Part shown: piece after piece, positions 6,284 to 30,305 of the stretch
Position numbering within the stretch: position 1 is the first letter of the stretch
How the letters are laid out: each line of letters opens with the position of its first letter
Assembly: GCA_036338635.1 (NCBI GenBank)
Contig: JAYZBS010000045.1
Coordinates: 4,601 to 68,600, forward strand
Source of the DNA: Pseudomonadota bacterium
GTDB taxonomy: Bacteria > Pseudomonadota > Alphaproteobacteria > Rhodobacterales > Rhodobacteraceae
Length of the DNA: 64,000 nt
Reading direction: 5' to 3'
Notes under the pieces: model-generated
What the model was told of the DNA's origin: nothing
The model's input: the letters and a program-made list of their open reading frames with translations, nothing else
The model's database searches: none
Translations under genes and position numbers: made by a program

Positions 6284-6326
6284 GAAAGGGCCGCGCCTGC
6301 CATCCGGCGGGCGCGGCCCTTTTTTC
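6284..6326. terminator. Bidirectional intrinsic terminator
   Basis: AAAGGGCCGCGCCTGC-catcc-GGCGGGCGCGGCCCTTTTTT between convergent genes. Confidence 0.85.
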
Positions 6327-6337
6327 GTGTCCGCGGT

Positions 6338-8323
6338 TCAGGCCGGGGCGGTCGCCGTCCGGCGCGTCAGGCCCAGATGGTGCAGGACCAAACCCAGCCC
6401 GATGGCGGCGATGCCATATTCCAACGCGCGCCCGCCGATCTGCATCAGCGGCAGGATCGTCAGCACGCCGACCGCCACCCAGGCCACTCGCAGCGCCCCG
6501 CGCACCGGCACGAAGCCGTGCCCCATCCAGCCCCCGCAGACCAGCGCTAACGCGATCACCGACGAGACGGCGACATAGACGATCTCGGGCAGGTTGCCCT
6601 CCATCAGAAGCGCCGGCTTGTAGATGAAGAGGAACGGCAGCAGATAGGCGACCCAGCCCACCTTGAAGGATTCCACCGCCGTCTCGACCTGCCCGGCCCC
6701 CGAGATGGTCGCGGCGGCGAACGAGGCCAACGCGATGGGTGGCGTGATCATCGACAGCATGCCGAAGTAGAAGACGAACATATGCGCGGCCAGCGGCGGG
6801 ATGCCCATCTGGACCAAGGCGGGCGCGGCCAACGAGGCCAGCAGCAGATAGACCGCCGTGGTCGGCAGGCCCAGCCCCAGCACGATGGCGACGAAGGCCG
6901 TGACGACCAGCATCCCCAGCAAGCTCGCCCCGCCCAGATCCAGCAGCACCATCGACAGCGAGAAGCCCAGCCCTGTCACCGACAGGATGCCGACGATCAT
7001 CCCGGCGGCGGCGGTGACCAGCAGCACCTCGGCGGTGGCCATGCCGGTGGTGGCCAACGCCTCCCACGCCTTGCGGGGCGAGATCGAGCCGGGCAGCCCC
7101 GGCCGCACCAGATGCGCGATCAGCGCCGCACCCAGCAACACGAAGATCGTCCAGGTCGCCGCCAGCTGCGCCTGCAGGTTCAGCCAGAAGATCCCCGCCA
7201 GCAACGAGATGAACCCCAGGATCGGCGTCCAACCCTGTGCCAGCACGCGGCCCATAGCGACTCGCCGTTCCCCGCGCAGGGTGCCGACACCGTCGCGCCG
7301 GGACAGGAAGTCGATCTGCAGGAAGATCGACAGGTAATACAACAGTGCCGGCAGCAGCGCGGCAACCAGAACGTCGCGATAGGGGACCTGCACGATCTCG
7401 GCCATCAGGAAGGCGGCCGCGCCCATGATCGGCGGCATCAGCTGCCCCCCGGTCGAGGCGACGGCCTCGATCGCGCCCGCCTGCCGCGCGGTGATCCCCG
7501 AGCGGCGCATCATCTGGATCGTGACGACCCCCGTGGACATCACGTTCGACACCGCGCTGCCCGAGACCGAACCGAAGAGCCCCGAGGCCGTCACCGCGAT
7601 CTTCGCCGCCCCGCCCGGCCCCTTGCCGGCGACGCGCATCGACAGCTGGGTGAAGAAATCCCCGCCGCCGACTGCGATCAGAAAGCCCCCGAATAGCACG
7701 AAGACCGCGACCACGAAGGCACCGACCTGCAACGAGGCGCCCCAGGTCGCCGAGCTGTCGCTGCCCAGAAAGCGCAACACCTGCGGCAGCGCGATGGCCC
7801 GGCCCGACAGCGCGCCCGGCACATGGTTGCCCCAGAGCGCATAGGCGAAGAACAACCCGAAGATCACCACCAGCGTCCAGCCGACGACCCGGCGCAGCAC
7901 GTCCATCACCAGCACGACGACGAAGGCGCCCAGGATCAGCGCCTCGGTCGGGTGAAAGGCCGCCATCTCGGACAGGACCTGAAAGCGAGCATAGACCCAA
8001 GCCCCGACGCCAAGGGCGACCAGCGCCAGCCCGATGTCGCAGACGGCGGGAAAGCCCGCCCGGCCCCGCGTGCGCAGATAGATCGCCGCCATGGAAACGG
8101 TCAGCATGACGGCGGCGATCTGCTCGGGGAAGACCAGCATGCTCGCGCGCATAGGCAGGCGCAGGACCCAGACCAAGGCCAGCAGCGGCACCAGCGCGCC
8201 CAGCACGGCCGAGATCCGGTCGGCAAGGCCGTTGCCTGCGGTCGGCATGGCGGGAAGTTCGCCAGCGGGGCTGGCGGCGGGTGGGATCTTGGAGCTCATC
8301 GCATCGCTCACGCTGAGGGGCAT
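6338..8323 (-). CDS. TRAP transporter fused 4TM/12TM permease (TAXI-associated), copy 1; start may be 8299
   Basis: GSVSGSAVSNV, AIEAVASTGGQLMPPIMGAAAFLMAE, LGLGLPTT and MITPPIALA motifs. Confidence 0.92.
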   Translation of the reverse strand: MPLSVSDAMSSKIPPAASPAGELPAMPTAGNGLADRISAVLGALVPLLALVWVLRLPMRASMLVFPEQIAAVMLTVSMAAIYLRTRGRAGFPAVCDIGLALVALGVGAWVYARFQVLSEMAAFHPTEALILGAFVVVLVMDVLRRVVGWTLVVIFGLFFAYALWGNHVPGALSGRAIALPQVLRFLGSDSSATWGASLQVGAFVVAVFVLFGGFLIAVGGGDFFTQLSMRVAGKGPGGAAKIAVTASGLFGSVSGSAVSNVMSTGVVTIQMMRRSGITARQAGAIEAVASTGGQLMPPIMGAAAFLMAEIVQVPYRDVLVAALLPALLYYLSIFLQIDFLSRRDGVGTLRGERRVAMGRVLAQGWTPILGFISLLAGIFWLNLQAQLAATWTIFVLLGAALIAHLVRPGLPGSISPRKAWEALATTGMATAEVLLVTAAAGMIVGILSVTGLGFSLSMVLLDLGGASLLGMLVVTAFVAIVLGLGLPTTAVYLLLASLAAPALVQMGIPPLAAHMFVFYFGMLSMITPPIALASFAAATISGAGQVETAVESFKVGWVAYLLPFLFIYKPALLMEGNLPEIVYVAVSSVIALALVCGGWMGHGFVPVRGALRVAWVAVGVLTILPLMQIGGRALEYGIAAIGLGLVLHHLGLTRRTATAPA

Positions 8324-8360
8324 CGAGGAGCGCCGGCACGGGCAGCACCGGCGGTGTGGA

Positions 8361-9308
8361 TCACTCGGCGACGGGCACGCCCTGCGCCTGATAGAAGGCC
8401 AGCGCGCCGGGGTGATAGGTCATCCCGCCGGCCCGGCCCATCGTTTCGGGATCGAAACTGTTCCACATGGGGCTGGTCGCCAGCAGCGCGTCCTCGCCCT
8501 CGTAGAGGGCCTTGACCATCGCCGTCACGACCTCGTCCGAGACATCGGCATTGGCGAACAGCAGGTATTCATAGCCGAAGACCTTGGTGTCCTCGGTCAC
8601 CGCCGCCTCGCCCGAATCCGAGACGTCGAAGATGCGCGTGCCGGGCAGGATCTCGGCCATCACGGCCTCATCTTCTTCGGACATCGGCAGGTAGCGTACC
8701 TCGCCGACGCTGGCCTGCATGTCCATCACGAAGGCCGAGCCGACGGTCGCGATGGAAGTGTCCAGGATCCCGTCGCGGAAGCCGTCATACATCGACACGA
8801 AGTTGGCCGTGGGGATGGCGCGCACATCGTCATAGCTCATGTCCCCCGTCGCCAGCACCGCCCGCATGACGTAATCGCCAAGCGAGCCGTCGGGGAAGCG
8901 CGGCACGTTGCGGCCGGCCAGATCCTCAAGCTCGCGGATGCCCGAGCTTTCCAGCACCAGCATCCCCGAGGTGAAATCCATCAGCGAGGCGACCAGCCGC
9001 AGGTTGTCACCCGGCTGCCCCTCGGACAGGCCCGTGCCGGTCATGGCGAAATAGGTCTGGGGATAGTTCGCGATGCCGAATTCCAGCTGCCCCTGATCGA
9101 CCAGCGGGATGTATTGCGCGGTGTTCGCCGTCTCTTGCGGGATCACGCGGATCTCGCCGCCCGCGGTCGCCACGCTGGCGATCGCCAGCCCGATCTGCCC
9201 GGTCGCCGCGCCGCTCAGCGTGCCAAGGGCCACGTTCTCGGCGGCCGCAAAAGGCGCGGCTGCCAAGGACAGCAGGGCAGCGGCGGCCGTGTTCCGAATG
9301 AAGGACAT
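8361..9308 (-). CDS. TAXI-family TRAP solute receptor, copy 1
   Basis: ATG at 9308 after AGGAG; signal peptide; GQLEFGIAN; HPGALAFY C-terminus. Confidence 0.85.
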   Translation of the reverse strand: MSFIRNTAAAALLSLAAAPFAAAENVALGTLSGAATGQIGLAIASVATAGGEIRVIPQETANTAQYIPLVDQGQLEFGIANYPQTYFAMTGTGLSEGQPGDNLRLVASLMDFTSGMLVLESSGIRELEDLAGRNVPRFPDGSLGDYVMRAVLATGDMSYDDVRAIPTANFVSMYDGFRDGILDTSIATVGSAFVMDMQASVGEVRYLPMSEEDEAVMAEILPGTRIFDVSDSGEAAVTEDTKVFGYEYLLFANADVSDEVVTAMVKALYEGEDALLATSPMWNSFDPETMGRAGGMTYHPGALAFYQAQGVPVAE

Positions 9309-9350
9309 CTCATCTCTCCTAATGGACCGAAAGGAACTCATGCCCGTCTC

Positions 9351-9561
9351 TTGTGTACGAACTTGTATGCAGGCAGCCACGACCTGCATGCATCTGTCAA
9401 GCGCGACATTCGCCCGTTTGCATAAATTCGACCTGCCGAACTGTCCTGCTACTTAATGCGTATACGCTGCCTTCGACGGCAGCATTACCGGTGCTCCGGC
9501 ATCCGAATCCAAGCAGGACGCAAAAAAACATTTGCAGTATCATCCGTCTCTTTGCATACAA
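9351..9561. promoter_or_regulatory. Divergent promoter region with several GntR-type operator candidates
   Basis: TTGTGTACGA (9351), TTGTATGCAG (9363), perfect palindrome GCGTATACGC (9458) and TTGCATACAA (9552). Confidence 0.5.
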
Positions 9562-9622
9562 TGGGAACAAGAGAGCGCGCACCAACCGCCTTTATGTGCA
9601 CAAGCGCGACGGAGAAAATGCC

Positions 9623-10291
9623 GTGTCCTACATCCGCCTCGAGCAAGACCCCGCGATACGGCCGGCGCTGCGGGCCTATATGGTGATCCGCGACGCGATC
9701 CTGTCCGGCACGCTGCGCTCGGGCACGCATCTGCGCGAAGAGACGCTGGCCGAGATGACCGAGACCAGCCGCACCCCGGTCCGCGAGGCGCTGAGCCGCC
9801 TTGTTGCCGAGGGCCTGGCGATCGAGGAGAACCGCAGCCGCTACGTCGCTGATTTCTCGCCCTCCGAGATCATGGTGATGTTCGACATGCGCGCCCGGCT
9901 GGAGGGCTACGCAGGCCGCTTGGCTGCCGCCCATGTCACGCCGCCCGAATTGGACGAGATGGCGCGGCTGATCGACCAGATCGACGCGCTGGATGTCGAC
10001 AGCAGCCCCACCGCAACCGACGATTTCCTGGCGCTGAACGACCGCTTCCACGCCTGCATCCTGACGGCCGCCCGCTCGGCCCAACTGAAGATTATGATCC
10101 GCCCCGTGATGACCGCGCCCGTGGCGCTGCTCAAGCGTCACGTGATGGCGCAGCCGATCGGCGTGCGCGCCTCGAACGCGCAGCACCGGGAGATCCATCG
10201 AGCGCTGTCCAGCGGCGATCCGGATTGGTCGGAAACGGCGGTGCGGCTGCACGTCCTGTCCACGAAACCCGTCCCCACGGCCCGCGCATGA
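9623..10291 (+). CDS. GntR family (FCD) transcriptional regulator
   Basis: GTG at 9623 after GGAGA; TSRTPVREALSRL HTH; LNDRFH and QHREI. Confidence 0.88.
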   Translation: MSYIRLEQDPAIRPALRAYMVIRDAILSGTLRSGTHLREETLAEMTETSRTPVREALSRLVAEGLAIEENRSRYVADFSPSEIMVMFDMRARLEGYAGRLAAAHVTPPELDEMARLIDQIDALDVDSSPTATDDFLALNDRFHACILTAARSAQLKIMIRPVMTAPVALLKRHVMAQPIGVRASNAQHREIHRALSSGDPDWSETAVRLHVLSTKPVPTARA

Positions 10292-11112
10292 CTGGTCTTA
10301 CGGGTCTGAAGGGGCGCAGCGTCCTGATCACCGGCGGCGGCCGCGGCCTTGGTCGCGCCATGGCGCTGGCGCTGGCGCCCCACGGCGTGCGGCTGGCGCT
10401 GAGCGCCCGCGCGCCCTCCACCGCGCTGGACCAGACGCTGGCCGAGTGCCGCGCGCTCGGCGCCAAGGCGGCCATTGGGATCACGCTGGATGTCGGCGAT
10501 GCGGCCGCCTGCGCCGCTGCCGTGGCTCAGGTCGAGCCAACGATCGGCCTGCTGGACGTGCTGGTGAACAACGCCGGTCAGGGGATGCGGCTCGTCTCCG
10601 AGACGTTCAACACGCGCCCGACCCGATTCTGGGAGACCGCGCCCGAAGCCTGGGCGTCCATCATCGCCAGCAACGTGAACGGTCCCTTCAACATGGCCCG
10701 GGCGGCAGTGCCGGGCATGGTGGCGCGGGGGCGGGGCAAAGTGATCAACATCTCGACCTCGGACCAGACAATGGTGCGGAAGGGCTATGCGCCTTACGGC
10801 CCGTCCAAGGCCGCGCTGGAGGCCGCAAGCCGGATCTGGGCGCAGGATCTGGCCGGCACCGGCGTCACGGTCAACGTCTTCCTGCCCGGCGGGGCGGCCG
10901 ATACCGACCTGCTGCCGCCTGCGCCGGACAAGAAGGGCGCCGACGGCAAGCTGCTGTCTCCGCAGGTTATGGCGCCGGGCATCCGCTGGCTCTGCTCGGA
11001 CGCCTCGGACGGGACCACCGGCGCGCGCTTCATCGCCGCGCTCTGGGGCGATGCCGATGCGCCTGCCCCGGCCGCGATGTCGGCCCATGCGCCCAAGCCG
11101 GCGATCATGTGA
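10288..11112 (+). CDS. SDR oxidoreductase
   Basis: TGGGRGLG, LVNNAG, YGPSK; ATGA-coupled start. Confidence 0.88.
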   Translation: MTGLTGLKGRSVLITGGGRGLGRAMALALAPHGVRLALSARAPSTALDQTLAECRALGAKAAIGITLDVGDAAACAAAVAQVEPTIGLLDVLVNNAGQGMRLVSETFNTRPTRFWETAPEAWASIIASNVNGPFNMARAAVPGMVARGRGKVINISTSDQTMVRKGYAPYGPSKAALEAASRIWAQDLAGTGVTVNVFLPGGAADTDLLPPAPDKKGADGKLLSPQVMAPGIRWLCSDASDGTTGARFIAALWGDADAPAPAAMSAHAPKPAIM

Positions 11113-11121
11113 GGGCCCCAA

Positions 11122-12018
11122 ATGTTCCCCCCAAAGCCCTTGCGCCAGACCGACCTTCTGACACTGGGCGACGCCCGGATCAGCCGGATCACGGACATGG
11201 ACCCTTTCGCCTTGCCGCTGACATTCCTCTTCCCCGGCGCCGTCCCCGAGGCGCTGGAGGCGCATCGCAGCAGCCTTGCCCCATGGCACGTGGATTTCGC
11301 GGCCGGCTCGGTCCTTCTAGGCGTGCACAGCCTGCTGCTGCAGGCGGGCGGGCTGAACATCCTGATCGACACCTGCGTCGGCGCCTGCAAGCCCCGCCCC
11401 GCCCGGCCGGAATGGCACCAGCGCAGGGCCGCCGGTTATCTGGCAGCGCTGTCCCGCGCCGGCCTTGCGCCCGAGGATATCGACATCGTCCTTTGCACGC
11501 ATCTGCACGCCGATCATGTCGGCTGGAACACCCGACTGCAGGACGGGCGGTGGGTGCCCACCTTCCCCCGCGCCCGCTACGTGATCGGCCGGCAAGAGCT
11601 TCAGGACGCAGCCTCCGCGCATCAGGCGGGCCACAACCATGGCGCCTATGCTGACAGCGTCCTGCCGGTGATCGAAGCTGGCCTCGTGCAGCCCGTGGAT
11701 GGCGGGGCGGAGCTCCAGCGCGGCATGACCCTGACGCCGCTGCCGGGGCACACTGCCGGGCAGCTGGGTCTTGCCCTCAGCGTCGCCGGGCGCCGCGTCC
11801 TTTTCTGCGGCGATGCGCTGCATTCGCCCGTGCAGGTCCACCACCCGGACTGGAGCAGCCGCTTCTGCGCCGACCCCGCCCAGGCCGCCCGCACCCGTCG
11901 CACCCTGCTGGAGACCGTGGCCGAGGACGCCGCCCTTCTGGTCCCCGCCCATCTGCGCGGCGATCTGGCCCTGTCTGTCCGCCGCCAAGGCGACGCCTTT
12001 CATCCCGCGCCGGCATGA
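11122..12018 (+). CDS. Metallo-beta-lactamase-fold hydrolase (lactonase/hydrolase-like)
   Basis: THLHADHVGWN, PGHTAG, GDALH. Confidence 0.9.
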   Translation: MFPPKPLRQTDLLTLGDARISRITDMDPFALPLTFLFPGAVPEALEAHRSSLAPWHVDFAAGSVLLGVHSLLLQAGGLNILIDTCVGACKPRPARPEWHQRRAAGYLAALSRAGLAPEDIDIVLCTHLHADHVGWNTRLQDGRWVPTFPRARYVIGRQELQDAASAHQAGHNHGAYADSVLPVIEAGLVQPVDGGAELQRGMTLTPLPGHTAGQLGLALSVAGRRVLFCGDALHSPVQVHHPDWSSRFCADPAQAARTRRTLLETVAEDAALLVPAHLRGDLALSVRRQGDAFHPAPA

Positions 12019-12061
12019 CCTGCTGCCGCGCCTCCCGTTTCGAAGAAGAAGGTAAGAACCG

Positions 12062-13258
12062 ATGAGCCACGAATCCGTCATCATCGTCGGCGCCGGGCCG
12101 GTCGGGCTGGTGTCGGCCCTCAGCCTCGCCGAGGCCGGCATCCCCGTCACCGTGATCGAGGCGCATGGCGAGGTGCCGCGCGACCTGCGCGCTTCGACCT
12201 TTCATCCGCCGACCCTGGACATGCTGGACCGCTTCGGCATCTCGGACGAGCTGGTGGCGCGCGGGCTGATATGCCCCACCTGGCAGTTCCGCGACCGGGC
12301 CGAGGGCGTGGTGGCCGAATTCGATCTTGGCCTTCTGAAGGACGAAACCCGCCACCCCTATCGCCTGCAATGCGAACAGTGGAAGCTGGCCGAGGCGCTG
12401 CGCGACCGCATCGCGAAACTTGACAAGGTCGAGGTCCGCTACCACACCCGCGCGACCGAGGTGGCGCAGGATGACCTGGGCGTCAGCCTTACCGTCGCCG
12501 ACGCGGATGGCCGGACCGAGACCCTTCGCGCCCGCTACCTGATCGCCGCGGACGGCGCACACAGCGTCACACGCAAGGCGCTTGGCATCGCCTTCGACGG
12601 TTTGACCATTCCCGAGATCTTCCTGTCCATGTCCACCAGCTTCGATTTTTCCGAAGCCATCGGCGATTTGGCCCCCATCGCCTATATCACCGACCCGGAC
12701 GAATGGGCCGTCCTGCTGCGCACGCCGACCCTGTGGCGCGTGCTGCTGCCGACCGATCCCACGCTCAGCGACGCCGAGATCAAGGACCCCGCCGTGATGG
12801 AGGCGCGGATGCAGCAGATCTGCCCCAAGGATGGGCCCTATGACATCGTCCACGCCACCGCCTATCGCGTCCATCAGCGGGTGGCCGAGCGCTATGTCGA
12901 GGGGCGCATCTTCCTCGCCGGCGACGCCGCACATCTGAACAACCCGCTTGGCGGGATGGGGATGAACGGCGGCATCCATGATGCCGTGAACCTGACCGAT
13001 AAGCTGGTCCGCATCTGGAACGGCGCCCCCCTGTCCGAGATGGGCCGCTACGAGCGGCAGCGCCGCAAGGTCGCCATCGACACGGTGCAGGAGCAGTCCC
13101 TGCGCAACCGCAAGATCATGGCCGAGAACGACCCCGCCGCCCGCGCCGCCCATCACGACGAGCTGCGTGCCATCGCCGCCGATCCGGTGCGGCACAAGGC
13201 CTATCTGATGCGCTCGTCCATGCTGCAATCGCTGCACGAGCTGGAAGACGTCGCCTGA
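12062..13258 (+). CDS. FAD-dependent monooxygenase (group A aromatic hydroxylase-like)
   Basis: GAGPVG, IAADGAHS, LAGDAAHLNNPLGGMGMNGGIHDA. Confidence 0.9.
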   Translation: MSHESVIIVGAGPVGLVSALSLAEAGIPVTVIEAHGEVPRDLRASTFHPPTLDMLDRFGISDELVARGLICPTWQFRDRAEGVVAEFDLGLLKDETRHPYRLQCEQWKLAEALRDRIAKLDKVEVRYHTRATEVAQDDLGVSLTVADADGRTETLRARYLIAADGAHSVTRKALGIAFDGLTIPEIFLSMSTSFDFSEAIGDLAPIAYITDPDEWAVLLRTPTLWRVLLPTDPTLSDAEIKDPAVMEARMQQICPKDGPYDIVHATAYRVHQRVAERYVEGRIFLAGDAAHLNNPLGGMGMNGGIHDAVNLTDKLVRIWNGAPLSEMGRYERQRRKVAIDTVQEQSLRNRKIMAENDPAARAAHHDELRAIAADPVRHKAYLMRSSMLQSLHELEDVA

Positions 13259-19585: not shown

Positions 19586-20260
19586 GGCTCTATTGCGCAA
19601 AGCGCATAAGAAATTCATGCACTGAATTCAGCGTGGTAGCTGCAATGCAAGAGCAAACCTGCACCAACGACCTACAAGACCAGGAACTGGCCTACCTATA
19701 GCGAAGCGCTCAAGCGCCGGGGCTCGCTGACGATTTGGTTCGATCCCGAGATGAGGTGGGGGGTCGCGGCGACAGGCAAGCGTGGCCGCCGGCAGAGCTA
19801 CAGCGATGCCACCATCCAAACCTGCCTTTTCATGAAGGTGCTGTTCGGAATGGTGGACATCGGAGCGCCATTGGTCCGAGCGACAATGTCGACCAGGCAG
19901 ACGACAGGATTTGTCGAAAGACTGTTGCGTCAGGTCGGCCTTGACTGGTCGGTGCCCGACTTCAGTACCCTGAGCCGCCGCCAGAAGACTGTCGCCGTCA
20001 ACATCCCGTATCGTGGCTGCAAAGGGCTGTTGCACCTGCTGATAGACAGCACCGGCATCAAGGTCGAGGGCGAAGGCGAGTGGCGCATCGTCACCGGTCC
20101 GAGCGTGCCGCGAACGTCCTACCCGACCTGCTCAGCCAGATCCCGGCCGACGAGGAAATCGGCAGGGGTGAGCCCCGCGAACGCTGATGGCGCCTATGGT
20201 TCGCGCAAGTGCTATGATGCGATCGCTGACTGCGGCGCCCACGCGATCATCCCGCCCCAC
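19586..20260 (+). mobile_element. Degenerate IS5-family (IS903 group) element
   Basis: Left IR GGCTCTATTGCGCAAA (14/16 identity to the intact copy at 44505); YKTRNW..LKRRGSLTIWFDP, DSTG, DGAY; internal deletion and frameshifts. Confidence 0.85.
19850..19893. repeat. Palindromic mini-insert, copy 1 (in-frame, in the IS5 transposase)
   Basis: ATGG + 32 nt (TGGACATCGGAGCGCCATTGGTCCGAGCGACA) + ATGT; net +12 codons versus the intact transposase at 44569. Confidence 0.75.
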
Positions 20261-20722
20261 CGTATTGGCAGCTCGCGCACCCGAAAGACCATGGCCGCGC
20301 CTTGGACCTTTCCGCTCTTGACCGGAACAAAGCGCATCGTGGGTTGCATAGCTGCCTCGCAGATGGCCTCCGCATTGGCGGCATCATCCTTCTGGCGCCT
20401 CACATAGGGCTTCACATAAGCAGGCGGGATCAACCGCACGTGATGGCCCAGCTTGCCGATCTCGCGACTCCAAAAATGGGCACCGCCACAGGCCTCCATC
20501 GCCAATGCAAGCGGGCAGCTAGCCGAAAAATTCCAGCACCTGAGCCCGCCGTATCTTCTTGCGCAGGACGGCCCCCCTGCGCCGTCGGCTCCATGCACTC
20601 GGAAAACATTCTCTGCCAGGTCGAGCCCGACCGTGATAATCTTCGACATGACCGCTCCCCTCTGTGGATCGTTGCAGACCCACCTTGGCATACAGATGCC
20701 GTCGGGGGGCGGTCACATCATC
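20261..20722 (-). mobile_element. IS110-family transposase 5' fragment with upstream end
   Basis: MSKIITVGLDLA (ATG 20649), MEACGGAHFW, IPPAYVKPY, DAANAEAICEA (DEDD N-terminal domain); frameshifted and truncated. Confidence 0.85.
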
Positions 20723-20870
20723 AGAGCCGTCTGAAGGCGCGATTTGCGCATCCCTCGAGCCACGACCGGCAGCTAAGGGCCGGTGTGAATGGCTAAAGCG
20801 GGAAGCCCAACTCACGAAATATTAGCCACTCAGGTCTGCCGCCGTTGCTCGTGACGGTCGACCATTCCGA

Positions 20871-21626
20871 TCAGCCCGCTGACCAGCCTCCGTCCAGCAT
20901 CAGTGCGCTGCCGGTCATCAGGTTCGAGGCGTCTGAGGCAAGGAAGATCGCGGCGCCGATGATGTCGTCTACCGTGCCGAGGCGGCCGAGCTTGATCTTT
21001 GACAGAACCTCTTCGCGGAATGCGGTATCTTTGAAATAGGGCCGGGTCAGGGGCGTGTCGATGAAGGTCGGGCAGATGGTGTTGACGCGGATGTTATGCG
21101 GACCTAGTTCGATCGCGGCGGCCTTGGTGAAGCCTTCAAGCCCCCATTTCGACGCGCAGTAGAGCGCGCGGCTTGCGGCGCCGACATGGCCCATCTGGCT
21201 CGACATGTTGATGATCGAGCCGGCAATCCCCTCACCCAGCATGCGACGCGTCACCGCCTGCAGCACGAAGATCGCGGCGCGCAGGTTCAGGCCCATGATG
21301 AGGTCGTAATCCTCGGCTGTCAGTTCGGTCAGTGGGCGGGGACGGTTGGTGCCGGCGTTGTTGACCAGGACGTGGAAGGCTGGCCGCGCCTCGATCAGGG
21401 CGGTGAAGGCGGCGATGTCGGTGACGTCAGCCACCATCGCCTCTGCATCGAGGCCGCGAGCGCGCAGGTTCTCCGCGGCGGCCGTCACCTCGTCCTCGCT
21501 GCGGGCGCAGAGGGTGACGGCGGCACCGCGCTCGGCATAGGCGCGCGCGATCGCAAGCCCGATGCCCCGCCCCGCGCCCGTCACCAACGCGCGCTTGCCG
21601 TAAAGGCGGAAGATGTCGCCGCTCAT
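20871..21626 (-). CDS. SDR oxidoreductase
   Basis: [24 protein letters not shown]. Confidence 0.9.
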
Positions 21627-22933
21627 TCTGCCGCCTCGCCATAGGCCACGTTCTGCCCGCCATAGCGGCGCACGCGGATGTTGCACTGCTCGGCATGGCC
21701 GACGAACCCTTCTAGCACGCACAGGCGAGAGCCGTAGGCGCCGATGCTGGCCGCCGCCTCGTCCGTCGTGATGCGCTGGTAGCTGTGGGTCTTGAGGAAC
21801 TTGCCGACCCAGAGCCCGCCGGTATAGCGCCCCGCCTTCTTCGTCGGCAGCGTGTGGTTCGTGCCGATCACCTTGTCGCCATTCGCGACATTGGTGCGCG
21901 GCCCGAGGAACAGCGCGCCATAGCTGTGCATCTGCTCCAGATACCAGTCGTCGCGGTCGGTCATCACCTGCACATGCTCATATGCCATGTCGTTGGCGAC
22001 CTGCAGCATCTCGTCATGGCTGTCGCAGAGGATCACATCGCCATAGTCGCGCCAGCTCGCCGCCGCCGTCTCGGCCGTCGGCAGGATGGTCAGCAGGCGG
22101 TCCACCTCGGCCAGCGCTTCTTCGGCGAGGCGGCGAGAATTGGTGATGAGGCAGGCGGGCGAGTTGTAGCCATGCTCGGCCTGGCCCAGAAGGTCGGTGG
22201 CCACGAGTTCAGCGTCCACGGTGTCGTCGGCGATCACCATCGTCTCGGTCGGCCCGGCGAAGAGGTCGATGCCGACGCGCCCGTAGAGCTGGCGTTTCGC
22301 CTCGGCCACGAAGGCATTGCCGGGACCGACCAGCATATCGACCGGCGCGATCCTCTCGGTGCCAAGGGCCATGGCGCCGACCGCCTGGATGCCGCCGAGC
22401 ACATAAATCTCGTGCGCGCCGGCCATGTGCATGGCGGCGATGACGGCCGGGTTCGGCGCGCCCTTGAAGGGAGGAGTCGCCGCGATGATCCGCGGCACGC
22501 CCGCGACAGCGGCCGTCAGGACTGACATGTGCGCCGAGGCGACCATCGGGAACTTGCCGCCGGGCACGTAGCAGCCGACCGACTGCACGGGGATATTGCG
22601 GTGGCCAAGGACGACGCCGGGCAGCGTCTCGATCTCGATGTCCTGCATCGAGGCGCGCTGTGCCTCGGCGAAGCGGCGCACCTGAGCCTGTGCGAAGTGG
22701 ATATCCTCCAGATCGTGCGGCGAGACCTGGCCGATCAGCGCCTGGATCTGGTCCTCCGTCAGGCGGAAGCTTTCGGGCGTGTAGCCGTCGAACTTCGCGG
22801 CCATCTCGCGCACGGCGGCATCGCCGCGGGTCTCGATGTCCGCCAGCGCCGCTTCGACACTGGCGCGGACGGCCGCGTCATCCTGACTACGCTCGCCCTC
22901 GGGCTTGCCGGTCTTCAGGTGGTGAGTCGCCAT
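21623..22933 (-). CDS. Histidinol-dehydrogenase-family (HpsN-like) dehydrogenase, probably catabolic
   Basis: [54 protein letters not shown]; outside any his operon. Confidence 0.85.
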
Positions 22934-22959
22934 GGTCTCTCCTTCTTTGCTTGCGGGGC

Positions 22960-23727
22960 TCAGCCCAGCATTCCTGTGTCGCCGCAGACGGACAGTGCTT
23001 GTCCCGATATCGTTCGACCGCGCGGGCTGGCGAGGAAGAGGATCTGGTCCGCGATCTGCTGCGGGCTTACGTAGTCCCGGATCGAGGTATAGGAAAACGC
23101 CTCGGTCTCGGCCTCGGCGAAGCCGATTCCGCGTGCATCGGCGCGGGATTGCAGCACCCGCCGCTGCCGTTCACCTGCCACGAGGCCGGGCAGGACTGCG
23201 TTGACGCGGATGCGGTCATCGCCCAGCTCCGCCGCCATGGATTTGGTCAGGCCGATCACCCCCCATTTCGCCGCCGCATAAGGGCTGCGGAGCCGGAACC
23301 CGAGCCGGCCGGCGAGCGAGGAGATGTTCACGATAGACGGGTTTTCGCTGCGCCGCAGATGCGGCACTGCGCGGCCGATGGTGACGAACTGGCTGGTCAG
23401 GCAGACGGAAAGGCAACGCTCAATCTCGATGAGGTCCAGCTCTTCGATCCGGCCCGTCGGCCCTGCGATACCGGCGTTGTTCACAAGGCAGTCGAGGCCG
23501 CCCAGTTGGTCCGCCGTCCGCGTCACGAAAGCGCCAAGGGCTGCGTGGTCCGAGACATCGACCATCTCACGCAGGACCTCGACCGGCAGGGCGGCCAGTG
23601 CGTCCGCGTCGATGTCGCAGGTGGCGACGCGTGCGCCTTCGGCGAGAAAAGCCTCGACGATGGCGCGGCCGATGCCCCCGGCGCCTGCCGTCACGATCAC
23701 CCGTGCGCCTTGCAATTGCATATCCAT
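22960..23727 (-). CDS. SDR oxidoreductase
   Basis: [29 protein letters not shown]. Confidence 0.9.
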
Positions 23728-23746
23728 GTCGGGTCCTTTCGAAAGG

Positions 23747-25002
23747 TCAGCGGCCGGTCAGCGCCAGCGACAGCCAAGGCACGAAGCTGATGATCACCAA
23801 AAGCCCCAGCATCAGCGCCACGAAGGGCAGCACCACCACGGACAGCCGCGCAATGGGAAACTTGGCCAGGGTGGACGCAATGAAGAAGTTCAGCCCTACC
23901 GGCGGCGTGAACATCCCCATTGCCAAGTTCACCACCATGATAATCCCGAAATGCACCGGGTGGATGCCGAAGTTGATGGCGATGAGCAGAAGGATGGGGG
24001 TGAAGATCAGGATCGCGGCCGCCGCCTCCAGGAACATCCCGACGAAGAGCAGGAGCAGGTTCACCAGGATGATGAAGAGCCAGGGGCTCTCGATGGCGCC
24101 GATTACGAAGTCAGAGATGGCGGCCGGCACCTGCAGCGACAGGATGATGCGGCCGTAGAGGCCGGCCGTCGCGATGATCGACAGCACCACCGCCGAGGTG
24201 ATGGCGCTGTCTCTGAGGATTACTGGCAGGGCGCGCACCGGCAGCTCGCGGTAGATCAGGACGCCGACCAGCAGCGAATAGACGACGGCGATGACGGCTG
24301 CCTCCGTCGGCGTGACGACGCCGCCATAAATGCCGCCCAAGATAAGCGCAGGCATCAGCAGCGCCAGGATGGCCTTGCGACCGGCGCGGCCGATCTCGGC
24401 CAAGCTGGCGCGCTCGTCGCGGACCGCCGGGTGACGAAGGGCATGCAGCCAGGCGAAGATCATCAGCCCGCCGACGACGACGAAGCCGGGCAGAAAGCCC
24501 GCTGCGAACATATCGCCGACGGACTGGTTCGCCGAGATCGCATAAAGGATCAGCGGGATCGAGGGCGGGATGATGACGCCGAGCGCGCCCGAGGCCGCCT
24601 GGTTCGCTGCCGCATAGGAGGCGCTGTAGCCCTGCGCGACCATGGCCGGGATCAGGATCGCGCCCACGGCGGCCGTGGTCGCCGCGCCCGAGCCCGAGAT
24701 GGCGGCGAAGAAGGCCGAGGTGACGATGGCAACCATGGCGAGCCCGCCATTCATGCTGCCGACCAAGGTGCGCGAGAAGGCGACCACCCGCTGCGAGATG
24801 CCGCCCTGTTGCATCAGGTTGCCGGCCAGGATGAAGAACGGGATCGCCAGAAGGGGGAACGAGTTGATCGAGCGGATCATCTCTTGCGGGACGATCAGCA
24901 TGGGCATCAGATCGTCGCGATGGCGGCGAGGCCAAGCGCGAAGGCTACGGGCACGCCCGCGAGCAGCAACACCAGGAGGACGCCAAAGAGGATCGCGGTC
25001 AT
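23747..25002 (-). pseudogene. dctM: TRAP large permease DctM, frameshifted near 24910
   Basis: ATG at 25002 gives MTAILFGV...LAAIATI-stop; the rest (SFPLLAIPFF, SGSGAA, IIPPSI, TPTEAA, TPPVG) continues in another frame. Confidence 0.85.
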
Positions 25003-25499
25003 GCCGTCTGCTCCTGCCGCGTGCGCAGGCTATCCGCGATCACCGCCAGCGCGTTCAGCACGATCATTGCGGCCCCGGCAGGCATGGCGGCATATAGCCA
25101 AGCCATCGAGACGCGGGTGCTTGGGGCGGTTTGCGGCAGCACGCGCTGTGTGATCGCCAGCCCTTCGCGCAGTAGCACCAACGCAAAGAGTGCGGATGCG
25201 AGCGCGACGACGATCCTCAGCACCGTGACCATACGCGGGCCCATCAGGCTGGGCAGCAGCTCGACCGCGATAAGGGCGCCGTAGCGGTAGGCATAGGCTG
25301 CGCCCAGCATTGTCAGCCAGACCGTCGAGAAGCGCGCGACCTCCTCCGAGAAGGTCAGCGAGTTGCCCATCACGTAGCGGGCGAAGACCTGCCAGCTGAT
25401 CAGCACCGTCATCACGGCCATCAGCGCCGCCATGAGCCAGCCGATCACCCAGTTGACCCCGTCAACGCCGCGCACGAAGGCGCCCAGAACAGCCTGCAT
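24999..25499 (-). CDS. dctQ: TRAP small permease DctQ
   Basis: QVFARYV..SLTFSEEVARF; four TM helices. Confidence 0.88.
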   Translation of the reverse strand: MQAVLGAFVRGVDGVNWVIGWLMAALMAVMTVLISWQVFARYVMGNSLTFSEEVARFSTVWLTMLGAAYAYRYGALIAVELLPSLMGPRMVTVLRIVVALASALFALVLLREGLAITQRVLPQTAPSTRVSMAWLYAAMPAGAAMIVLNALAVIADSLRTRQEQTA

Positions 25500-25557
25500 C
25501 GTCACCCCTCTCGTAGTTGTGGGTGTGGCCGGAGCAGGGCGCCCCGGCCGTGCCGCC

Positions 25558-26532
25558 TCAGGACGAGGTCGCTTGCGCCGCTTCGACCAGTTCGGCGCCG
25601 ACCGTGTCCTTCCACTGCTCGATCACGGGCTGCACCCGCTCGCGGAACGGCTCGAGATCGGGGCGGGTCACGGTCATGCCCAAGGTTTCCAGCTCAGCAA
25701 TCAGCTCCTCTTCCATCCGCTACAAGGCTTCGCGCTGGACCGGCACGGCCAGGGCCGCGGCCTCCATCACGATGGCCTTGTCCTCTTCGGACAACGAGTT
25801 GAAGAGCTGCGCGCCCATCATCAGCGGCGCAGGGGAATAGACGTGCTGCGTCAGGTTCAGGTAGCGCTGCACGTCGTAGAACTTGACGTCGTAAATGGTC
25901 GGGATCGGGTTCTCTTGGCTGTCCATCACGCCCTGCTGCAGCGCGGTGAACACCTCGGTCCAGGCCATAGGCGAGGCGTTGGCGCCAAGCGCGGTCCAGG
26001 TGTCCACCTGCACGCGGCTTTCCTGCGTGCGGTGGCGGATGCCGTTCAGATCGTCCGGGCTATTCAGCGGCCGCACGTTGTTTGTGTTATGCCGGAAGCC
26101 GTTCTCCATCCAGCCGAGGATCTTCACGCCGGCATCGTTCTCCAGCTTCTCGGCCAGCGCCTCGCCATGCTCGCCGTCGAGGAAGCCATAAGCCGCCTCG
26201 GCGCTGGTGAAGATATATGGCAGGTCGAACAACAGGAAATCGTTGACGAAGCCACCCATCGGCCCGGTCGAGGTGATGCCCATGTCGATGAGACCGAAAC
26301 CCATTCCCTCGACCACCTCGCGCTCGGCGCCCAAGGCATTGTCGTATTGCGGGCGGATGGTCAGGCGGCCGTCGGAAAGCCGCTCCAGCTCCTCACCAAA
26401 CTTGTGGACGCCCACGGCCTGGTGTGATTCCGGACCGAGGGGCAGGCTGACCTCGAAAGTCCGCGTCTCCTGCGCACCGGCAGCGCCTGCCGCCAGCAAA
26501 AGCACCGGAATGATCGTGGTGAAGTGCCGCAT
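25558..26532 (-). pseudogene. dctP: TRAP solute-binding protein DctP with in-frame TAG at 25720-25722
   Basis: DLNGIRHRT, SPMAWTEVFTALQQGVMDSQEN; the frame continues past TAG (RMEEELIAELETLGMTV...) to TGA at 25558. Confidence 0.88.
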
Positions 26533-26710
26533 GATATCTCCTCTCGTCGATGGACTGGCACCCCCTCCTCAGGGCATTCCGCCAGCAGCTACACCGTGAT
26601 CTCACTTAAGCGTAAGGCTGCCGAATGTAGATCGTCAACAGGTATATTTACCCTATTATTGCTGGAAAAAGCGCTGACTGAAAGACATTATCACCAGAAA
26701 TAAGCAATAA

Positions 26711-27448
26711 GTGAGGTCACGGTTGCAAGACGCAGCGGCGGCAGCGGCGCAGAGCGACGGTTGGTCCCGAATCGGCCCCCTTGCCCTGCGCGAGGGGCAG
26801 ACGGCGCAGGCCCAGATCTACTCCGCGCTGCGTGAGGCGTTGATCAGCGGCTACTTTCGCCCCGGCGAAGAGATCAGCCTGCGCCGCGCCGCCGCCGTTC
26901 TTGGAACCAGCGTCACGCCCGTGCGCGAGGCGCTGCGCCAACTGGAAAGCGACGGCGGGCTCGAGGTCTTCGGCGGCAACCGGGTCCTGCGCGTCCCGGT
27001 GCTCGGCCCGGCCGAGCTGCTGGACATCCGCGACATCCGGATCAACCTCGAGGGCTTTGCCGCCGAAGTGGCAATCGGGGGCATGCGTCCCTCACGGCTT
27101 CGTCTGATCGAGAACGCGTGCCGATTGATGCAGCGTGCTGCGGATGCCGGGGATGCGGACATGTATCTGGAGAACAACTGGCGCTTTCATTCGCTGATCT
27201 ACGAGGCGGCCGAGCGGCCGGTGCTGATGGGACTGATCCGCGGCATGTGGCTGCGCGTCGGTCCGCTGATCCGCACCGCCGTCACGGCACCGCTGCATTT
27301 CGACCGCTCGATGAGCAGCCACGACGCGGCCATGGAGGCGCTGCGTCGGGGCGACGGCGCCGCGCTGCGGGACGCGATCATCCGCGACATCAGTGATGCG
27401 GCCGCCGACCTGACTGCCGCGCCCGCCGGCGCAGCGCGGTCGGCATGA
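26711..27448 (+). CDS. GntR family (FCD) regulator
   Basis: GTSVTPVREALRQL; NWRFH; divergent from dctP. Confidence 0.88.
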   Translation: MRSRLQDAAAAAAQSDGWSRIGPLALREGQTAQAQIYSALREALISGYFRPGEEISLRRAAAVLGTSVTPVREALRQLESDGGLEVFGGNRVLRVPVLGPAELLDIRDIRINLEGFAAEVAIGGMRPSRLRLIENACRLMQRAADAGDADMYLENNWRFHSLIYEAAERPVLMGLIRGMWLRVGPLIRTAVTAPLHFDRSMSSHDAAMEALRRGDGAALRDAIIRDISDAAADLTAAPAGAARSA

Positions 27449-27470
27449 CCGGCAAAGGGAGAGGGAAACC

Positions 27471-28379
27471 ATGTCACGAAGCATCGCCGTCATCGGCTGC
27501 GGCCTGATCGGCCGCGCCTGGAGCATCGTCTTTGCGCGCGCAGGCTGCGACGTCCGCCTGTGGGACCCTGTCCCCGCGGTGCGCGACGCGCTGCCGGGCC
27601 TTCTGGAGGCGACGATTCAGGTCAGCGGTGACGATCCGGATGCCCTGCAGCGAATTCAGATCGTCGACACGCTGCAGGACGCCCTAGCCGGCGCCGAGTG
27701 GGTGCAAGAAAACGGCCCCGAGCAGCTGGACATCAAGCGCGACCTCTACGCGCAGATGGACGCCGTCGCCGCGCCGGACACGATCCTCGCCTCGTCCAGT
27801 TCGGCGCTGGTCGCCTCCAGCTTCGCGGCGGGCCTTGCGGGGCGGAGCAGAATCCTCGTCGCTCATCCCGTCAACCCGCCGCATGTGATCCCCGTGGTTG
27901 AGCTGTGCCCCGCGCCCGACACTGCGCCCGAGGTGGTGGACCGGGCCGAGGCGCTGATGCGCGACGTGGCGCAGGTGCCCGTCCGCATGACCCGCGAGGT
28001 AGACGGCTTCGTGCTGAACCGCCTGCAGGCGGTCGTGCTGGCCGAGGCGCTGTCGCTGATCGAGCAGGGCATCGTCACCCCGCAGGGACTGGACGACACG
28101 ATGGCCCACGGGCTCGGCCGCCGCTGGACGCTGATGGGGCCGATGGCGACGATCAACCTGAATGCACCGGGCGGCGTGGCGGATTATCTGAACCGCTACG
28201 GCCCCACCATGGCGCGCCTTTCCGATAGCGCCGCGCGGGGCGGGGCGTTCACCGCCAGTGCCGCGCAGATGGTGGCCGAGGCGATGCCCAGCCCGGCAGA
28301 GGTGCCGGTCCTCAGCATGGCGCGCGACCGCCGGCTGGCCGCCCTGACCCGCCACCTGAACGCAGAAAAGGAGACGTAA
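27471..28379 (+). CDS. 3-hydroxyacyl-CoA dehydrogenase family (L-gulonate 3-DH / carnitine DH-like)
   Basis: GCGLIG, QENGPE, SSSS, AHPVNPPH, GFVLNRLQ. Confidence 0.88.
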   Translation: MSRSIAVIGCGLIGRAWSIVFARAGCDVRLWDPVPAVRDALPGLLEATIQVSGDDPDALQRIQIVDTLQDALAGAEWVQENGPEQLDIKRDLYAQMDAVAAPDTILASSSSALVASSFAAGLAGRSRILVAHPVNPPHVIPVVELCPAPDTAPEVVDRAEALMRDVAQVPVRMTREVDGFVLNRLQAVVLAEALSLIEQGIVTPQGLDDTMAHGLGRRWTLMGPMATINLNAPGGVADYLNRYGPTMARLSDSAARGGAFTASAAQMVAEAMPSPAEVPVLSMARDRRLAALTRHLNAEKET

Positions 28380-28380
28380 G

Positions 28381-29312
28381 ATGCCCGCAGCCCGCAAGGT
28401 CGTCATCACCTGCGCCGTCACTGGCGCGATCCACACCCCGTCCATGTCCCCGCACCTGCCGGTCAGCGCCAGCGAGATCGCCGAAGCCGCCATCGGAGCG
28501 GCCGAGGCCGGTGCCGCCATCGTCCACCTGCACGCCCGCGACCCCGATGACGGTCGCCCCGACCAGACGCCGGAGGCCTTTGAGCCGTTCCTGCGGGTGA
28601 TCAAGCAACGCTCGGACTGCGTCGTGAATATCACCACGGGCGGGGCGCCAACGATGAGCATCGCCGAGCGCGTCCGTCCTGCCGCCACTTGGAAGCCCGA
28701 GCTCGCCTCGCTGAACATGGGCTCGATGAATTTTGGCCTCTTCCCGATGCTGAAGCGGTTCGAGTCGGACCTGAAGCATGAGTGGGAACGGACCTACCTC
28801 GCCGACAAGGGCATCCTCTTCCGCAACACATTTGCGGACATCGAGCACATCCTGACGACGCTCGGCGCCAATGGCACCCGCTTCGAGTTCGAGTGCTATG
28901 ACACCGCCCATCTCTACAACCTCAAGCATTCGTCGATGCGGGGCTGGTCGAGGGGCCGCTGTTCATCCAGACGGTCTTTGGCCTGATGGGCGGGATCGGC
29001 GCCCATCCCGACGACGTCATGCACATGAAGCGCACGGCGGACCGGCTGTTTGGCGACAACTACCGCTGGTCCGTCCTCGGCGCTGGCCGCAACCAGTTGC
29101 CCCTCGCGGCCATGGCGGCCGCCATCGGTGGTCATGTGCGTGTGGGCCTCGAGGACTCGATCTGGGCCGGGCCGGGCAAGCTTGCAGAGAGCAACGCCCA
29201 GCAGGTCCGCGCGGCGCGTCAGATCATCGAAGGGCTGGGGCTCGAGGTCGCGACCCCCGACGAGGCGCGCGGCCTGCTAGCGCTGATGGGGAGAGACAAG
29301 ACATCCTTTTGA
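28381..29312 (+). pseudogene. Beta-keto acid cleavage enzyme (BKACE/Kce, DUF849), -1 frameshift at ~28930
   Basis: ITCAVTG, IVHLHARD, ECYD, RVGLED; CATTCGTC where CATTTCGTC would restore HFVDAGL..PLFIQTVFG. Confidence 0.88.
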
Positions 29313-29370: not shown

Positions 29371-29575
29371 TGTTAATTAGGTGTTTGATCCCATGGTTTG
29401 ATGGTGCGATCCTTTCCGCGGAATGGAAGGAAGCATTATGGGCCAAGTTCGTCACGGAAGCGCCACGACCACGCACGCCGTCAGAGCTGCAATACAGCGA
29501 TCGCAAGCTTCGCTCGCAAGGCTGAGCCGGGAGCTTGGCATCAACCCAAAGACAGTGGCGAAATGGCGCAAGCCC
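29371..29575 (+). mobile_element. IS481-family 5' fragment
   Basis: TGT-starting end; MGQVRHGSATTTHAVRAAIQRSQAS..GINPKTVAKWRK from ATG 29438. Confidence 0.75.
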
Positions 29576-29645
29576 GCAAATCATCGCCTTGTTCTGGATG
29601 GAATTTTCTGGATCGCGCGGACCGGCTCTCCTTGGCGTGACTGTA
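29576..29645 (+). mobile_element. IS5-family (DUF4096-type) N-terminal fragment
   Basis: NHRLVLDGIFWIARTGSPWRD. Confidence 0.65.
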
Positions 29646-29691
29646 TCGACCCAGTGAAACCTGCTCATGCTACAAGGAGTAAAACGTAGCG

Positions 29692-30305
29692 ATGAGTGGA
29701 CCATTGGAAGACGTCGACAAGCGGTGGACGGCCAAGCGTAAGTCGGCGCTGGTCATCGAGATCATTCAGGGCAAGACGACGGTGGCGGAAGCCAGCCGCA
29801 GCTATGACCCTTCTCCATCGGAGATCGAAGGCTGGGTTGGTGATGCCCGTCGGGGCATGGAGAACGCACTGCGGACAAACCCGCTCGATGTTCGCCAGGA
29901 ATACGAGAAGCGGTTCCGGGATCTACAGGAAGCCTATGGCGAGGCTATGCTGGAGCTGCGCGCGCGATAAAGTTGGCGGCCCTCATGGTGAGCCATTGAG
30001 CCGCCATCGGTCCGAGGCCAATGGCGAACGGAGGACGACAATTGATCCGGACGCTTCATGAGGGCCTTCTGGCGGATGGCATCAGAGTGTCGCTGGTGAA
30101 GCTCTGCGCCTGGTTCGGCGTCCCGCGGCGGACGGTGTATTACAAACCCGTCAAGGCCGCGCCGGAGGTCGATCCCCGCTTCGCCGAGCCGATCAAGGCC
30201 ATGATCGAGGAAAACCCGTCGTTCGGCTATCGGACGGTGGCATTTCTGCTGGGCTTCAACAAGAACACCGTGCAGCGGATCTTCCAGCTGAAGAACTTGC
30301 AGTGA
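29692..30305 (+). mobile_element. IS3-family remnant: DUF1153 orfA plus truncated orfB
   Basis: RWTAKRKSALVIEIIQGKTTVAEASR; orfB LCAWFGVPRRTVYY..PSFGYRTVA..NKNTVQRI. Confidence 0.85.
29985..30029. repeat. Palindromic mini-insert, copy 2 (IS3 orfA/orfB junction)
   Basis: ATGG + 32 nt (TGAGCCATTGAGCCGCCATCGGTCCGAGGCCA) + ATGG; GCCATTG/CAATGGC stem. Confidence 0.75.

Follow-up and report, generated by a model that had tools for sequence, protein, structure and literature searches.

A putative nine-gene catabolic cassette with a BKACE15-type gene set and an HpsN-like dehydrogenase in a Paracoccus-like Rhodobacterales genome

We analysed a 64,000-nucleotide stretch of contig C45 (the window; JAYZBS010000045.1, positions 4,601 to 68,600) from the 3.5-Mb, 203-contig draft genome of a Paracoccus-like member of the Rhodobacterales. 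Our subject is a set of nine genes at 20871-29312, arranged as two divergent operons. [quoted passage not shown] On balance we favour the reading that the region is a discrete, horizontally moving catabolic cassette, the TRAP version of the gene set found around BKACE15 of Paracoccus denitrificans, that would act on a small hydroxylated organic anion and is dead in this genome. The initial annotation had proposed a candidate uncharacterised polyol or hydroxy-acid pathway for this interval; every gene family that it named is present by Pfam and NCBIfam, with very strong matches, and as a candidate the proposal holds on these families and on the recurrence of the gene set.

Extent, copies and decay of the cassette

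When 40 relatives were searched at the DNA level, two congeners, G022 (79% identity) and G019 (76-77%), proved to have the whole 8.4 kb in collinear form. Six-frame comparison of the window with both genomes places the start of homology at 20866-20871 and its end at 29312, with unrelated flanks in all three; since these ends coincide with the interval drawn in the initial annotation, its coordinates delimit a real conserved unit. The solute-binding protein occurs in just three more genomes (G664, G641 and G629) in a search of 400 Rhodobacterales genomes. The nearest copy is the full cassette of G664, a further congener, with 86% nucleotide identity across the unit and a HisD-like protein 93% identical to that of the window. 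G629, from another genus, carries all nine genes with the HisD-like gene inverted, and the congener G641 (99% complete) has the TRAP-SDR2/GntR-HCDH-BKACE genes without the HisD-like/SDR1 pair. The broken transposase genes on the two sides of the cassette belong to different insertion sequence (IS) families, IS5-type DDE on one side and DUF4096 and IS3-type HTH on the other.

No plasmid record in PLSDB covers at least 80% of the cassette, the matches being to the HisD-like/SDR1 pair only, and one of them led to a 1.73-Mb replicon of P. denitrificans (NZ_CP141053.1; locus L155, 204225-224203). There, in a stretch that the record leaves unannotated, HCDH, BKACE, the HisD-like gene and SDR1 come after a Liv-type ABC importer on one strand, with gntR and SDR2 divergent. 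Relative to the G022 copy, identities are 80% for BKACE, 81% for the HisD-like protein, 67% for SDR2, 64% for SDR1 and 58% for HCDH, with just 30% for the regulator. Four peptides from the alignment with 8RIO, the structure of P. denitrificans BKACE15, occur exactly in the BKACE of this replicon, which is therefore BKACE15. The initial annotation had staked its reading on the right-hand genes travelling with the HisD-like gene, and they are indeed co-conserved with it in five cassette-bearing genomes and in P. denitrificans. Downstream of SDR1 (L155, 4109-8277) lie a gene without a Pfam match, a further short-chain dehydrogenase, an FAD-linked oxidase of the D-arabinono-1,4-lactone oxidase type and a permease of the EutH family, a set suggestive of sugar-alcohol or lactone chemistry.

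Alignment with both intact orthologues, from G022 and G019, shows three of the nine genes to be broken in the window: dctP, dctM and the BKACE gene. The other six, SDR1 among them, are full length. In dctP a CAG codon has become TAG at 25722-25720, a sense codon in both orthologues (CAG in G022); the PF03480 match ends at profile position 241 of 286, and the same frame resumes past the TAG. In dctM a 13-bp deletion near 24908-24911 brings the reading frame that opens with the ATG at 25002 to a stop after 31 codons, and the PF06808 match begins only at profile position 34. The BKACE gene lacks one base at about 28928, away from any homopolymer (AAGCA-TTCG here versus AAGCACTTCG), and is split into two frames, whose halves score 307.8 and 177.5 bits on NF053538. 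The initial annotation, in calling for an intact orthologue for a DctP ligand screen, had hinted at the damage to dctP; the lesions in dctM and BKACE, and with them the non-functional state of this copy, went unmentioned.

A draft of 203 contigs in which one of the lesions is a single-base deletion might suggest sequencing or assembly errors, and thus a cassette that still functions here. We consider this very unlikely, given that the lesions are of three different kinds (a C-to-T nonsense change, a 13-bp deletion and a 1-bp deletion outside a homopolymer), that all fall within 8.4 kb flanked by IS debris, and that a second carrier has an independent lesion. While the congeneric copies in G022 and G019 are intact, dctM of G664 carries its own 10-bp insertion, also causing a frameshift (L150, G664:C121, about 3530-3547, equivalent to about 24019 in the window). 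From these alignments we conclude that the cassette is unable to import or to cleave its substrate in this strain, and that carriers lose it repeatedly, the transporter having been lost independently in a second lineage. Independent decay in two carriers, near IS elements, illustrates on a small scale how mobile DNA can shed accessory catabolic genes.

The intact genes are tightly packed (Table 1). The ATG of SDR1 overlaps the stop codon of the HisD-like gene (ATGA), so these two genes are translationally coupled; the stop of dctQ overlaps the start of dctM in the same manner (ATGA), and a single base separates HCDH from BKACE. The divergent region between the dctP and gntR operons spans 178 bp and holds two inverted copies of a 14-bp site, CCGTGATCTCACTT at 26594-26607 and AAGTGAGGTCACGG at 26709-26722, both of which are kept in G022 and G019 against only 65% identity over the entire region. 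Their core, GTGANNTCAC, occurs just twice in the 64-kb window (26596-26605 and 26711-26720), each time in the divergent region. We regard the two sites as putative operators of the GntR/FCD regulator, which is 76-82% identical to its orthologues; the true start of gntR may lie a few codons downstream of 26711.

Table 1. Genes and other features of the cassette and its immediate flanks (window coordinates)
Feature	Position	Strand	Description
IS5-family transposase remnant, left flank	19751-20407	+	PF13737, 9e-29
SDR1	20871-21626	-	Short-chain dehydrogenase of the gluconate-5-dehydrogenase / L-xylulose-reductase type; Pfam adh_short_C2, 6e-58
HisD-family gene	21623-22933	-	PF00815, 447 bits; intact
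SDR2	22960-23727	-	Pfam short-chain dehydrogenase
dctM, TRAP large permease	23747-25002	-	PF06808; pseudogene
dctQ, TRAP small permease	24999-25505	-	PF04290, 1e-30; intact
dctP, TRAP solute-binding protein	25558-26532	-	PF03480; pseudogene
Control region, candidate GntR operators	26596-26720		Two inverted copies of a palindrome-containing site
GntR/FCD regulator	26711-27448	+	PF00392 and PF07729
HCDH, 3HCDH-fold 3-hydroxyacid dehydrogenase	27471-28379	+	NF004783; intact
BKACE	28381-29312	+	NF053538 in two pieces; pseudogene
Transposase fragments, right flank	29402-30305	+	IS4/5 DUF4096 and IS3-type HTH_Tnp_1

The HisD-like dehydrogenase and the TRAP binding protein

The layout of a HisD-fold dehydrogenase, short-chain dehydrogenases, a TRAP transporter and a regulator had been compared in the initial annotation with the hpsKLM-N-O cluster for 2,3-dihydroxypropane-1-sulfonate (DHPS), and among solved structures the two characterised HpsN enzymes do come nearest to the HisD-like protein (CpHpsN, 8V35, 382 bits; RpHpsN, 8WWE, 372 bits), with HisD structures at 249 bits or less. 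Residue identity to HpsN is about half. The protein has the equipment of the HisD fold, with the zinc ligands (Gln, His, Asp and a C-terminal His) and the catalytic Glu318/His319 pair in place (CpHpsN aligns at QAEH, EH, GDK and the C-terminal His), and Asp352 and Lys353 are also kept. According to the CpHpsN structure paper, a diagnostic loop reads G-R-Y-A/S-H in HpsN and G-S-A-P-L in HisD, and the last residue of the HpsN loop, His126, binds the sulfonate together with Lys353 (PMC11382572). The aligned loop is GRYAH in CpHpsN, GRYSH in RpHpsN and GKFPM in the window protein, which thus has Met at the position of the sulfonate-binding histidine. Nor is this the biosynthetic HisD of the genome: it has no HisD-type loop, and a separate true hisD on contig C52 (555 bits versus 447) has the loop GGQAAY and falls in a different clade.

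We searched 1.84 billion cluster representatives exhaustively; a quick maximum-likelihood tree (IQ-TREE) then placed the protein in a GK[FY]P[ML] group (SH-aLRT 93) that is sister to the His-terminated HpsN-type group (SH-aLRT 98), both standing apart from true HisD. Motif, tree and scores agree that it clusters with neither bona fide HpsN nor bona fide HisD, the outcome on which the initial annotation had made its proposal depend, and its label 'HpsN-like' proves accurate for a member of a sister clade, though the protein falls outside HpsN proper. By sequence, then, the enzyme is neither HisD nor HpsN, and is assigned to the sister clade of the latter. That clade is very widespread, with at least 525 relatives confirmed, and members 80-92% identical to the window protein occur across Rhodobacterales and Rhizobiales. 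These are labelled 'hisD: histidinol dehydrogenase' at NCBI and 'sulfopropanediol 3-dehydrogenase' at JGI, and both names are probably wrong for the G-K-F-P-M clade. A literature search for 'HisD-like' and 'HisD homolog' returned no paper on this clade. Because its members fail the published HpsN motif, marine surveys of DHPS genes that count such sequences by score could be inflated.

The binding protein bears on the same question. The transporter is a complete TRAP system in its components, P, Q and M (P and M as pseudogenes in the window), and the Arg168/Arg189/Asn229 triad of DctP is invariant in the five copies compared, this one included, with the spacing of 21 and 40 residues of the published carboxylate/sulfonate triad (PMC11668362, PMC13335735). 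DctP does not resemble HpsK: its best match in the PDB is 4PDD (216 bits), HpsK of Ruegeria pomeroyi (24GC-24GF) is not among its top 60 PDB matches, and it scores 116 bits against HpsK of Bilophila wadsworthia. Its nearest solved relatives include an open form (4P47) and a binder of 2-keto-3-deoxygluconate (7BBR), and the remaining entries of that set hold co-purified pantoate or erythronate (PMC11668362). A small hydroxylated organic anion is most likely the substrate of the cassette. As a matter of speculation, plausible compounds are C4-C6 acids of the 2-deoxy-aldonic or omega-hydroxy 3-hydroxy type, among them 3,4-dihydroxybutanoate and 2-deoxyribonate. The former is the carboxylate isostere of DHPS, and its oxidation would give malate.

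It follows from these comparisons how far the parallel with hpsKLM-N-O extends: the layout stands, while the binding protein is not HpsK-like and the sulfonate-binding histidine is absent. A genuine cluster of the hpsKLM-N-O-P type for DHPS or cysteinolate, making sulfolactate or cysteate, would account for the HpsN structures as closest solved relatives, the JGI label, the resemblance of the transporter, the two short-chain dehydrogenases and the regulator to hps, and the retention of Lys353 and the zinc and catalytic residues. We nevertheless hold it to be extremely improbable, in view of the G-K-F-P-M loop in place of G-R-Y-A/S-H, the sister-clade position of the enzyme, the scores of the binding protein and the inventory of the cassette, in which each of the nine genes has an assignment and no sulfo-lyase occurs. 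The DHPS/HpsN identity is rejected on motif, tree and binding protein. Cysteinolate dehydrogenase is rejected as well: the L-cysteinolate-oxidising HpsN binds its substrate through the same residues as CpHpsN, and these are not kept in the window protein.

HCDH, BKACE15 and the coherence of the gene set

HCDH scores 352.6 bits on NF004783, narrowly above the cut-off of 347. Its best PDB match is lambda-crystallin (3ADO, 206 bits), as against about 70 bits for 3-hydroxybutyryl-CoA dehydrogenases, and on this footing we assign it to the lambda-crystallin / L-gulonate 3-dehydrogenase type, which acts on free acids; by score it is nearer to these enzymes than to those of acyl-CoA. Carnitine dehydrogenase was considered and excluded (NF005716, 179.4 bits against a cut-off of 592; NF005471, 154 against 414). 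Of the short-chain enzymes, SDR1 has gluconate 5-dehydrogenases as its best PDB matches (about 150 bits), and the best match of SDR2 is an uncharacterised protein (5UNL, 222 bits).

Intact orthologues of the cassette BKACE score 535.5, 542.9 and 534.4 bits on NF053538, against a cut-off of 430, and that of G022 matches 8RIO with 562 bits and about 80% identity; by sequence, the enzyme is identified as the orthologue of BKACE15. For BKACE15 the physiological role is described as unknown; in vitro it converts C5-C6 beta-keto acids and acetyl-CoA to acetoacetate and a shortened acyl-CoA, and it accepts 3,5-dioxohexanoate (PMC11961710). The subfamily was detected in 80 of 401 sampled alphaproteobacterial genomes (G270, one of those scanned, is counted among the 80). 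Of 20 alphaproteobacterial loci of the subfamily, 9-10 have genes for an SDR2-like enzyme, HCDH and BKACE side by side, often with gntR, and the importers vary between Liv-type ABC, CUT2 ABC with an SMP-30 lactonase, and TRAP. None of these 20 other loci has a HisD-like gene, and in G003 the SDR2-GntR / Liv-ABC-HCDH-BKACE form has none nearby. Elsewhere in the same genus, a BKACE 84% identical to that of the cassette (G007:C1:499076-499979; L153) has no HCDH, SDR2 or HisD-like gene within 10 kb, so the BKACE15 type occurs in other contexts too. The NetSyn preprint on BKACE makes no mention of TRAP, histidinol or hydroxyacyl contexts.

The neighbourhoods of the HisD-like gene were examined in 80 loci by conservation-based clustering and tblastn; greedy longest-open-reading-frame calling is noisy in these high-GC sequences. 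Its usual neighbours are a CUT1 ABC importer, a LacI regulator (65 of 80 loci) and, directly downstream, a short-chain dehydrogenase about 50% identical to SDR1 (61 of 80), in a regulon that further includes SnoaL-fold proteins, a cupin, a MetE-like protein, a hydrolase and an RraA-like aldolase. TRAP, GntR, HCDH and BKACE genes are absent from this LacI/CUT1 context, where the HisD-like protein is 80-87% identical to that of the window. In at least seven of the 80 loci, Ancylobacter included, the HisD-like gene has an HCDH of this NCBIfam family directly upstream of it, and where this HCDH adjoins, the downstream short-chain dehydrogenase is 65-73% identical to SDR1; a CUT2 sugar ABC importer, a LacI regulator and a hydrolase of the metallo-beta-lactamase fold precede these genes. 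A third context of the HisD-like gene is seen in L073 (Ancylobacter sp., 1381-12069) and similarly in L063, L065, L081 and L082. The order there is a CUT2 sugar ABC importer, LacI, a 184-residue protein with no Pfam match, a hydrolase of the metallo-beta-lactamase fold, a lambda-crystallin-type HCDH, the HisD-like gene and an SDR1-type gene, with no BKACE. An uncultured alphaproteobacterial contig (L007) has two HisD-like/SDR pairs 8 kb apart (1862-4098 and 9944-12066), the short-chain dehydrogenase in the cupin/hydrolase context being 52% identical to SDR1 and that of the other pair 72%; two subtypes can therefore coexist.

Across three gene orders and two kinds of importer, one and the same group of six enzyme and regulator families reappears, which argues for one metabolic context. 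Several findings weigh against the reading that we favour. No HisD-like gene was found anywhere in G641, a 99% complete cassette carrier, and about 65 of the 80 HisD-like loci lie in the LacI/CUT1-ABC/SnoaL/cupin context without BKACE; the two modules may thus act on different compounds. BKACE chemistry needs a methylene at C2 and the product of a HisD-type enzyme is a 2-hydroxy or 2-amino acid, so the two enzymes must act at the two ends of one molecule or on separate compounds. HCDH clears its family model by a small margin only, and beyond family membership we infer every catalytic step.

Taken to its end, this line of argument would make the cassette two unrelated operons carried together, HisD-like/SDR1 (with or without TRAP) for one compound and GntR-HCDH-BKACE for another. 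It would explain why G641 keeps the rest of the cassette without HisD-like/SDR1, why G003 and the 20 BKACE loci do without the gene, and why the latter is found mainly in the LacI/CUT1 regulon. We think it unlikely, though worth keeping in mind, as three arrangements contain the same gene set (the TRAP cassette, the inverted form of G629 and the single-strand HCDH-BKACE-HisD-like-SDR1 run of P. denitrificans) and as HCDH of the same family directly precedes the HisD-like gene in other orders that have no BKACE. From G641, G003, the 20 BKACE loci and the majority of HisD-like loci, all with one part but not the other, it follows that HisD-like/SDR1 is an optional module, and on this comparative footing we treat it as grafted onto a core of importer, SDR2, HCDH and BKACE. 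The linear order proposed in the initial annotation, of four-electron oxidation, C3 oxidation and then cleavage, is not established by these same observations, although its second half, with oxidation at C3 and then beta-keto cleavage dependent on acetyl-CoA, is in keeping with the families of HCDH and BKACE.

In the cassette reading that we favour, the intact copies might work as follows. A GntR/FCD repressor would act on the two inverted 14-bp sites between the operons. DctPQM, to judge from its family and the Arg-Arg-Asn triad, would import an organic anion, the 3-hydroxyl group of which would be oxidised by the lambda-crystallin-type HCDH to give a free beta-keto acid; the BKACE15 orthologue would convert this with acetyl-CoA to acetoacetate and a shortened acyl-CoA. 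SDR2 may oxidise or epimerise another secondary alcohol. HisD-like/SDR1 would carry out the four-electron oxidation of a primary alcohol beside a hydroxyl- or amino-bearing carbon, on a compound other than a sulfonate, and so may widen the range of compounds that feed the core pathway or open a second exit from it.

A bolder and distinctly doubtful proposal is that the G-K-F-P-M clade is the equivalent of HpsN for compounds other than sulfonates (a 3,4-dihydroxybutanoate-to-malate dehydrogenase, for instance) and, with HCDH and BKACE15, defines an undescribed route for small 2-deoxy-aldonic or omega-hydroxy 3-hydroxy acids. If true, this would give BKACE15 its physiological role and correct many 'hisD' and 'hpsN' annotations. 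The most useful outcomes of the analysis are the motif-based separation of the clade from HpsN and the tie of BKACE15, an enzyme with solved structures that forms part of a synthetic CO2-reduction cycle, to a recurring set of GntR, two short-chain dehydrogenases, HCDH, an HpsN-sister HisD-like enzyme and interchangeable importers, which narrows the search for its substrate.

Comparison with known systems

Readings of the cassette as a DHPS, carnitine or phloroglucinol pathway each fail, by sequence criteria, a defining test. For phloroglucinol, SDR2 would be phloroglucinol reductase (PGR), HCDH the 3-hydroxy-5-oxohexanoate dehydrogenase and BKACE the triacetate acetoacetate-lyase (TAL). The characterised pathway of Clostridium scatologenes uses these three families, NF053538 bears the NCBIfam name '3,5-dioxohexanoate:acetyl-CoA acetone transferase', and 3,5-dioxohexanoate is the very compound taken by BKACE15 in vitro. 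Even so, this identity seems highly improbable. The obligatory ring-opening cyclase DPGC (PF04199) is not in the cassette, an importer of the anion-triad TRAP or Liv type is ill-suited to neutral phloroglucinol, and no phloroglucinol reductase is among the PDB matches of SDR2 listed at E <= 1e-25. PF04199 was not found anywhere in G022 (100% complete) or G003 (99%), both carriers of the module, and the single copies in G000, G019 and G007 lie elsewhere. A phloroglucinol cluster (PGR, DPGC, TfD, TAL) is rejected on the lack of the cyclase from the cassette, G022 and G003.

Carnitine catabolism, invoked in the initial annotation for its pairing of 3-oxidation with acetyl-CoA-dependent cleavage, is similar in that a 3HCDH-fold dehydrogenase acting on a free 3-hydroxy acid is paired with a BKACE. 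It differs in that the cassette BKACE belongs to the BKACE15 family, not to the carnitine group, and in that the best model for HCDH is NF004783. The pathway itself is rejected and its enzymes are excluded, the carnitine dehydrogenase models falling far under their cut-offs (154-179 bits against 414-592). With HpsN (R-DHPS 3-dehydrogenase, EC 1.1.1.308; Cupriavidus pinatubonensis 8V35, R. pomeroyi 8WWE), the HisD-like enzyme shares the fold, the zinc ligands, the Glu-His pair, Asp352/Lys353 and, presumably, four-electron alcohol-to-acid chemistry. The hpsKLMNOP cluster likewise has a TRAP transporter, dehydrogenases and a regulator in a similar layout, whereas the cassette contains no desulfonation gene and adds HCDH and BKACE.

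The oxidative 2-deoxyribonate pathway of Pseudomonas simiae and Paraburkholderia resembles the cassette in that an imported hydroxy acid is oxidised at C3 to its beta-keto form and cleaved by a BKACE with acetyl-CoA to acetoacetate and a hydroxyacyl-CoA (Price et al., bioRxiv 10.1101/205583), and some relatives of the cassette have a sugar ABC importer with an SMP-30 lactonase. It differs in that its C3 dehydrogenase is a short-chain enzyme, its transporter is of the MFS type and it has no HisD-family enzyme. The BKACE15 cluster of P. denitrificans (8RIO/8RIP/9HNF; NF053538) has the same set of GntR, SDR2, HCDH, BKACE, HisD-like enzyme and SDR1, but a Liv-type ABC importer instead of TRAP, and HCDH-BKACE-HisD-like-SDR1 in one run. 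We therefore place the cassette, as a putative variant of BKACE-dependent hydroxy-acid catabolism, beside the carnitine, deoxyribonate and triacetate pathways, to which it would add a dehydrogenase of the HpsN sister clade.

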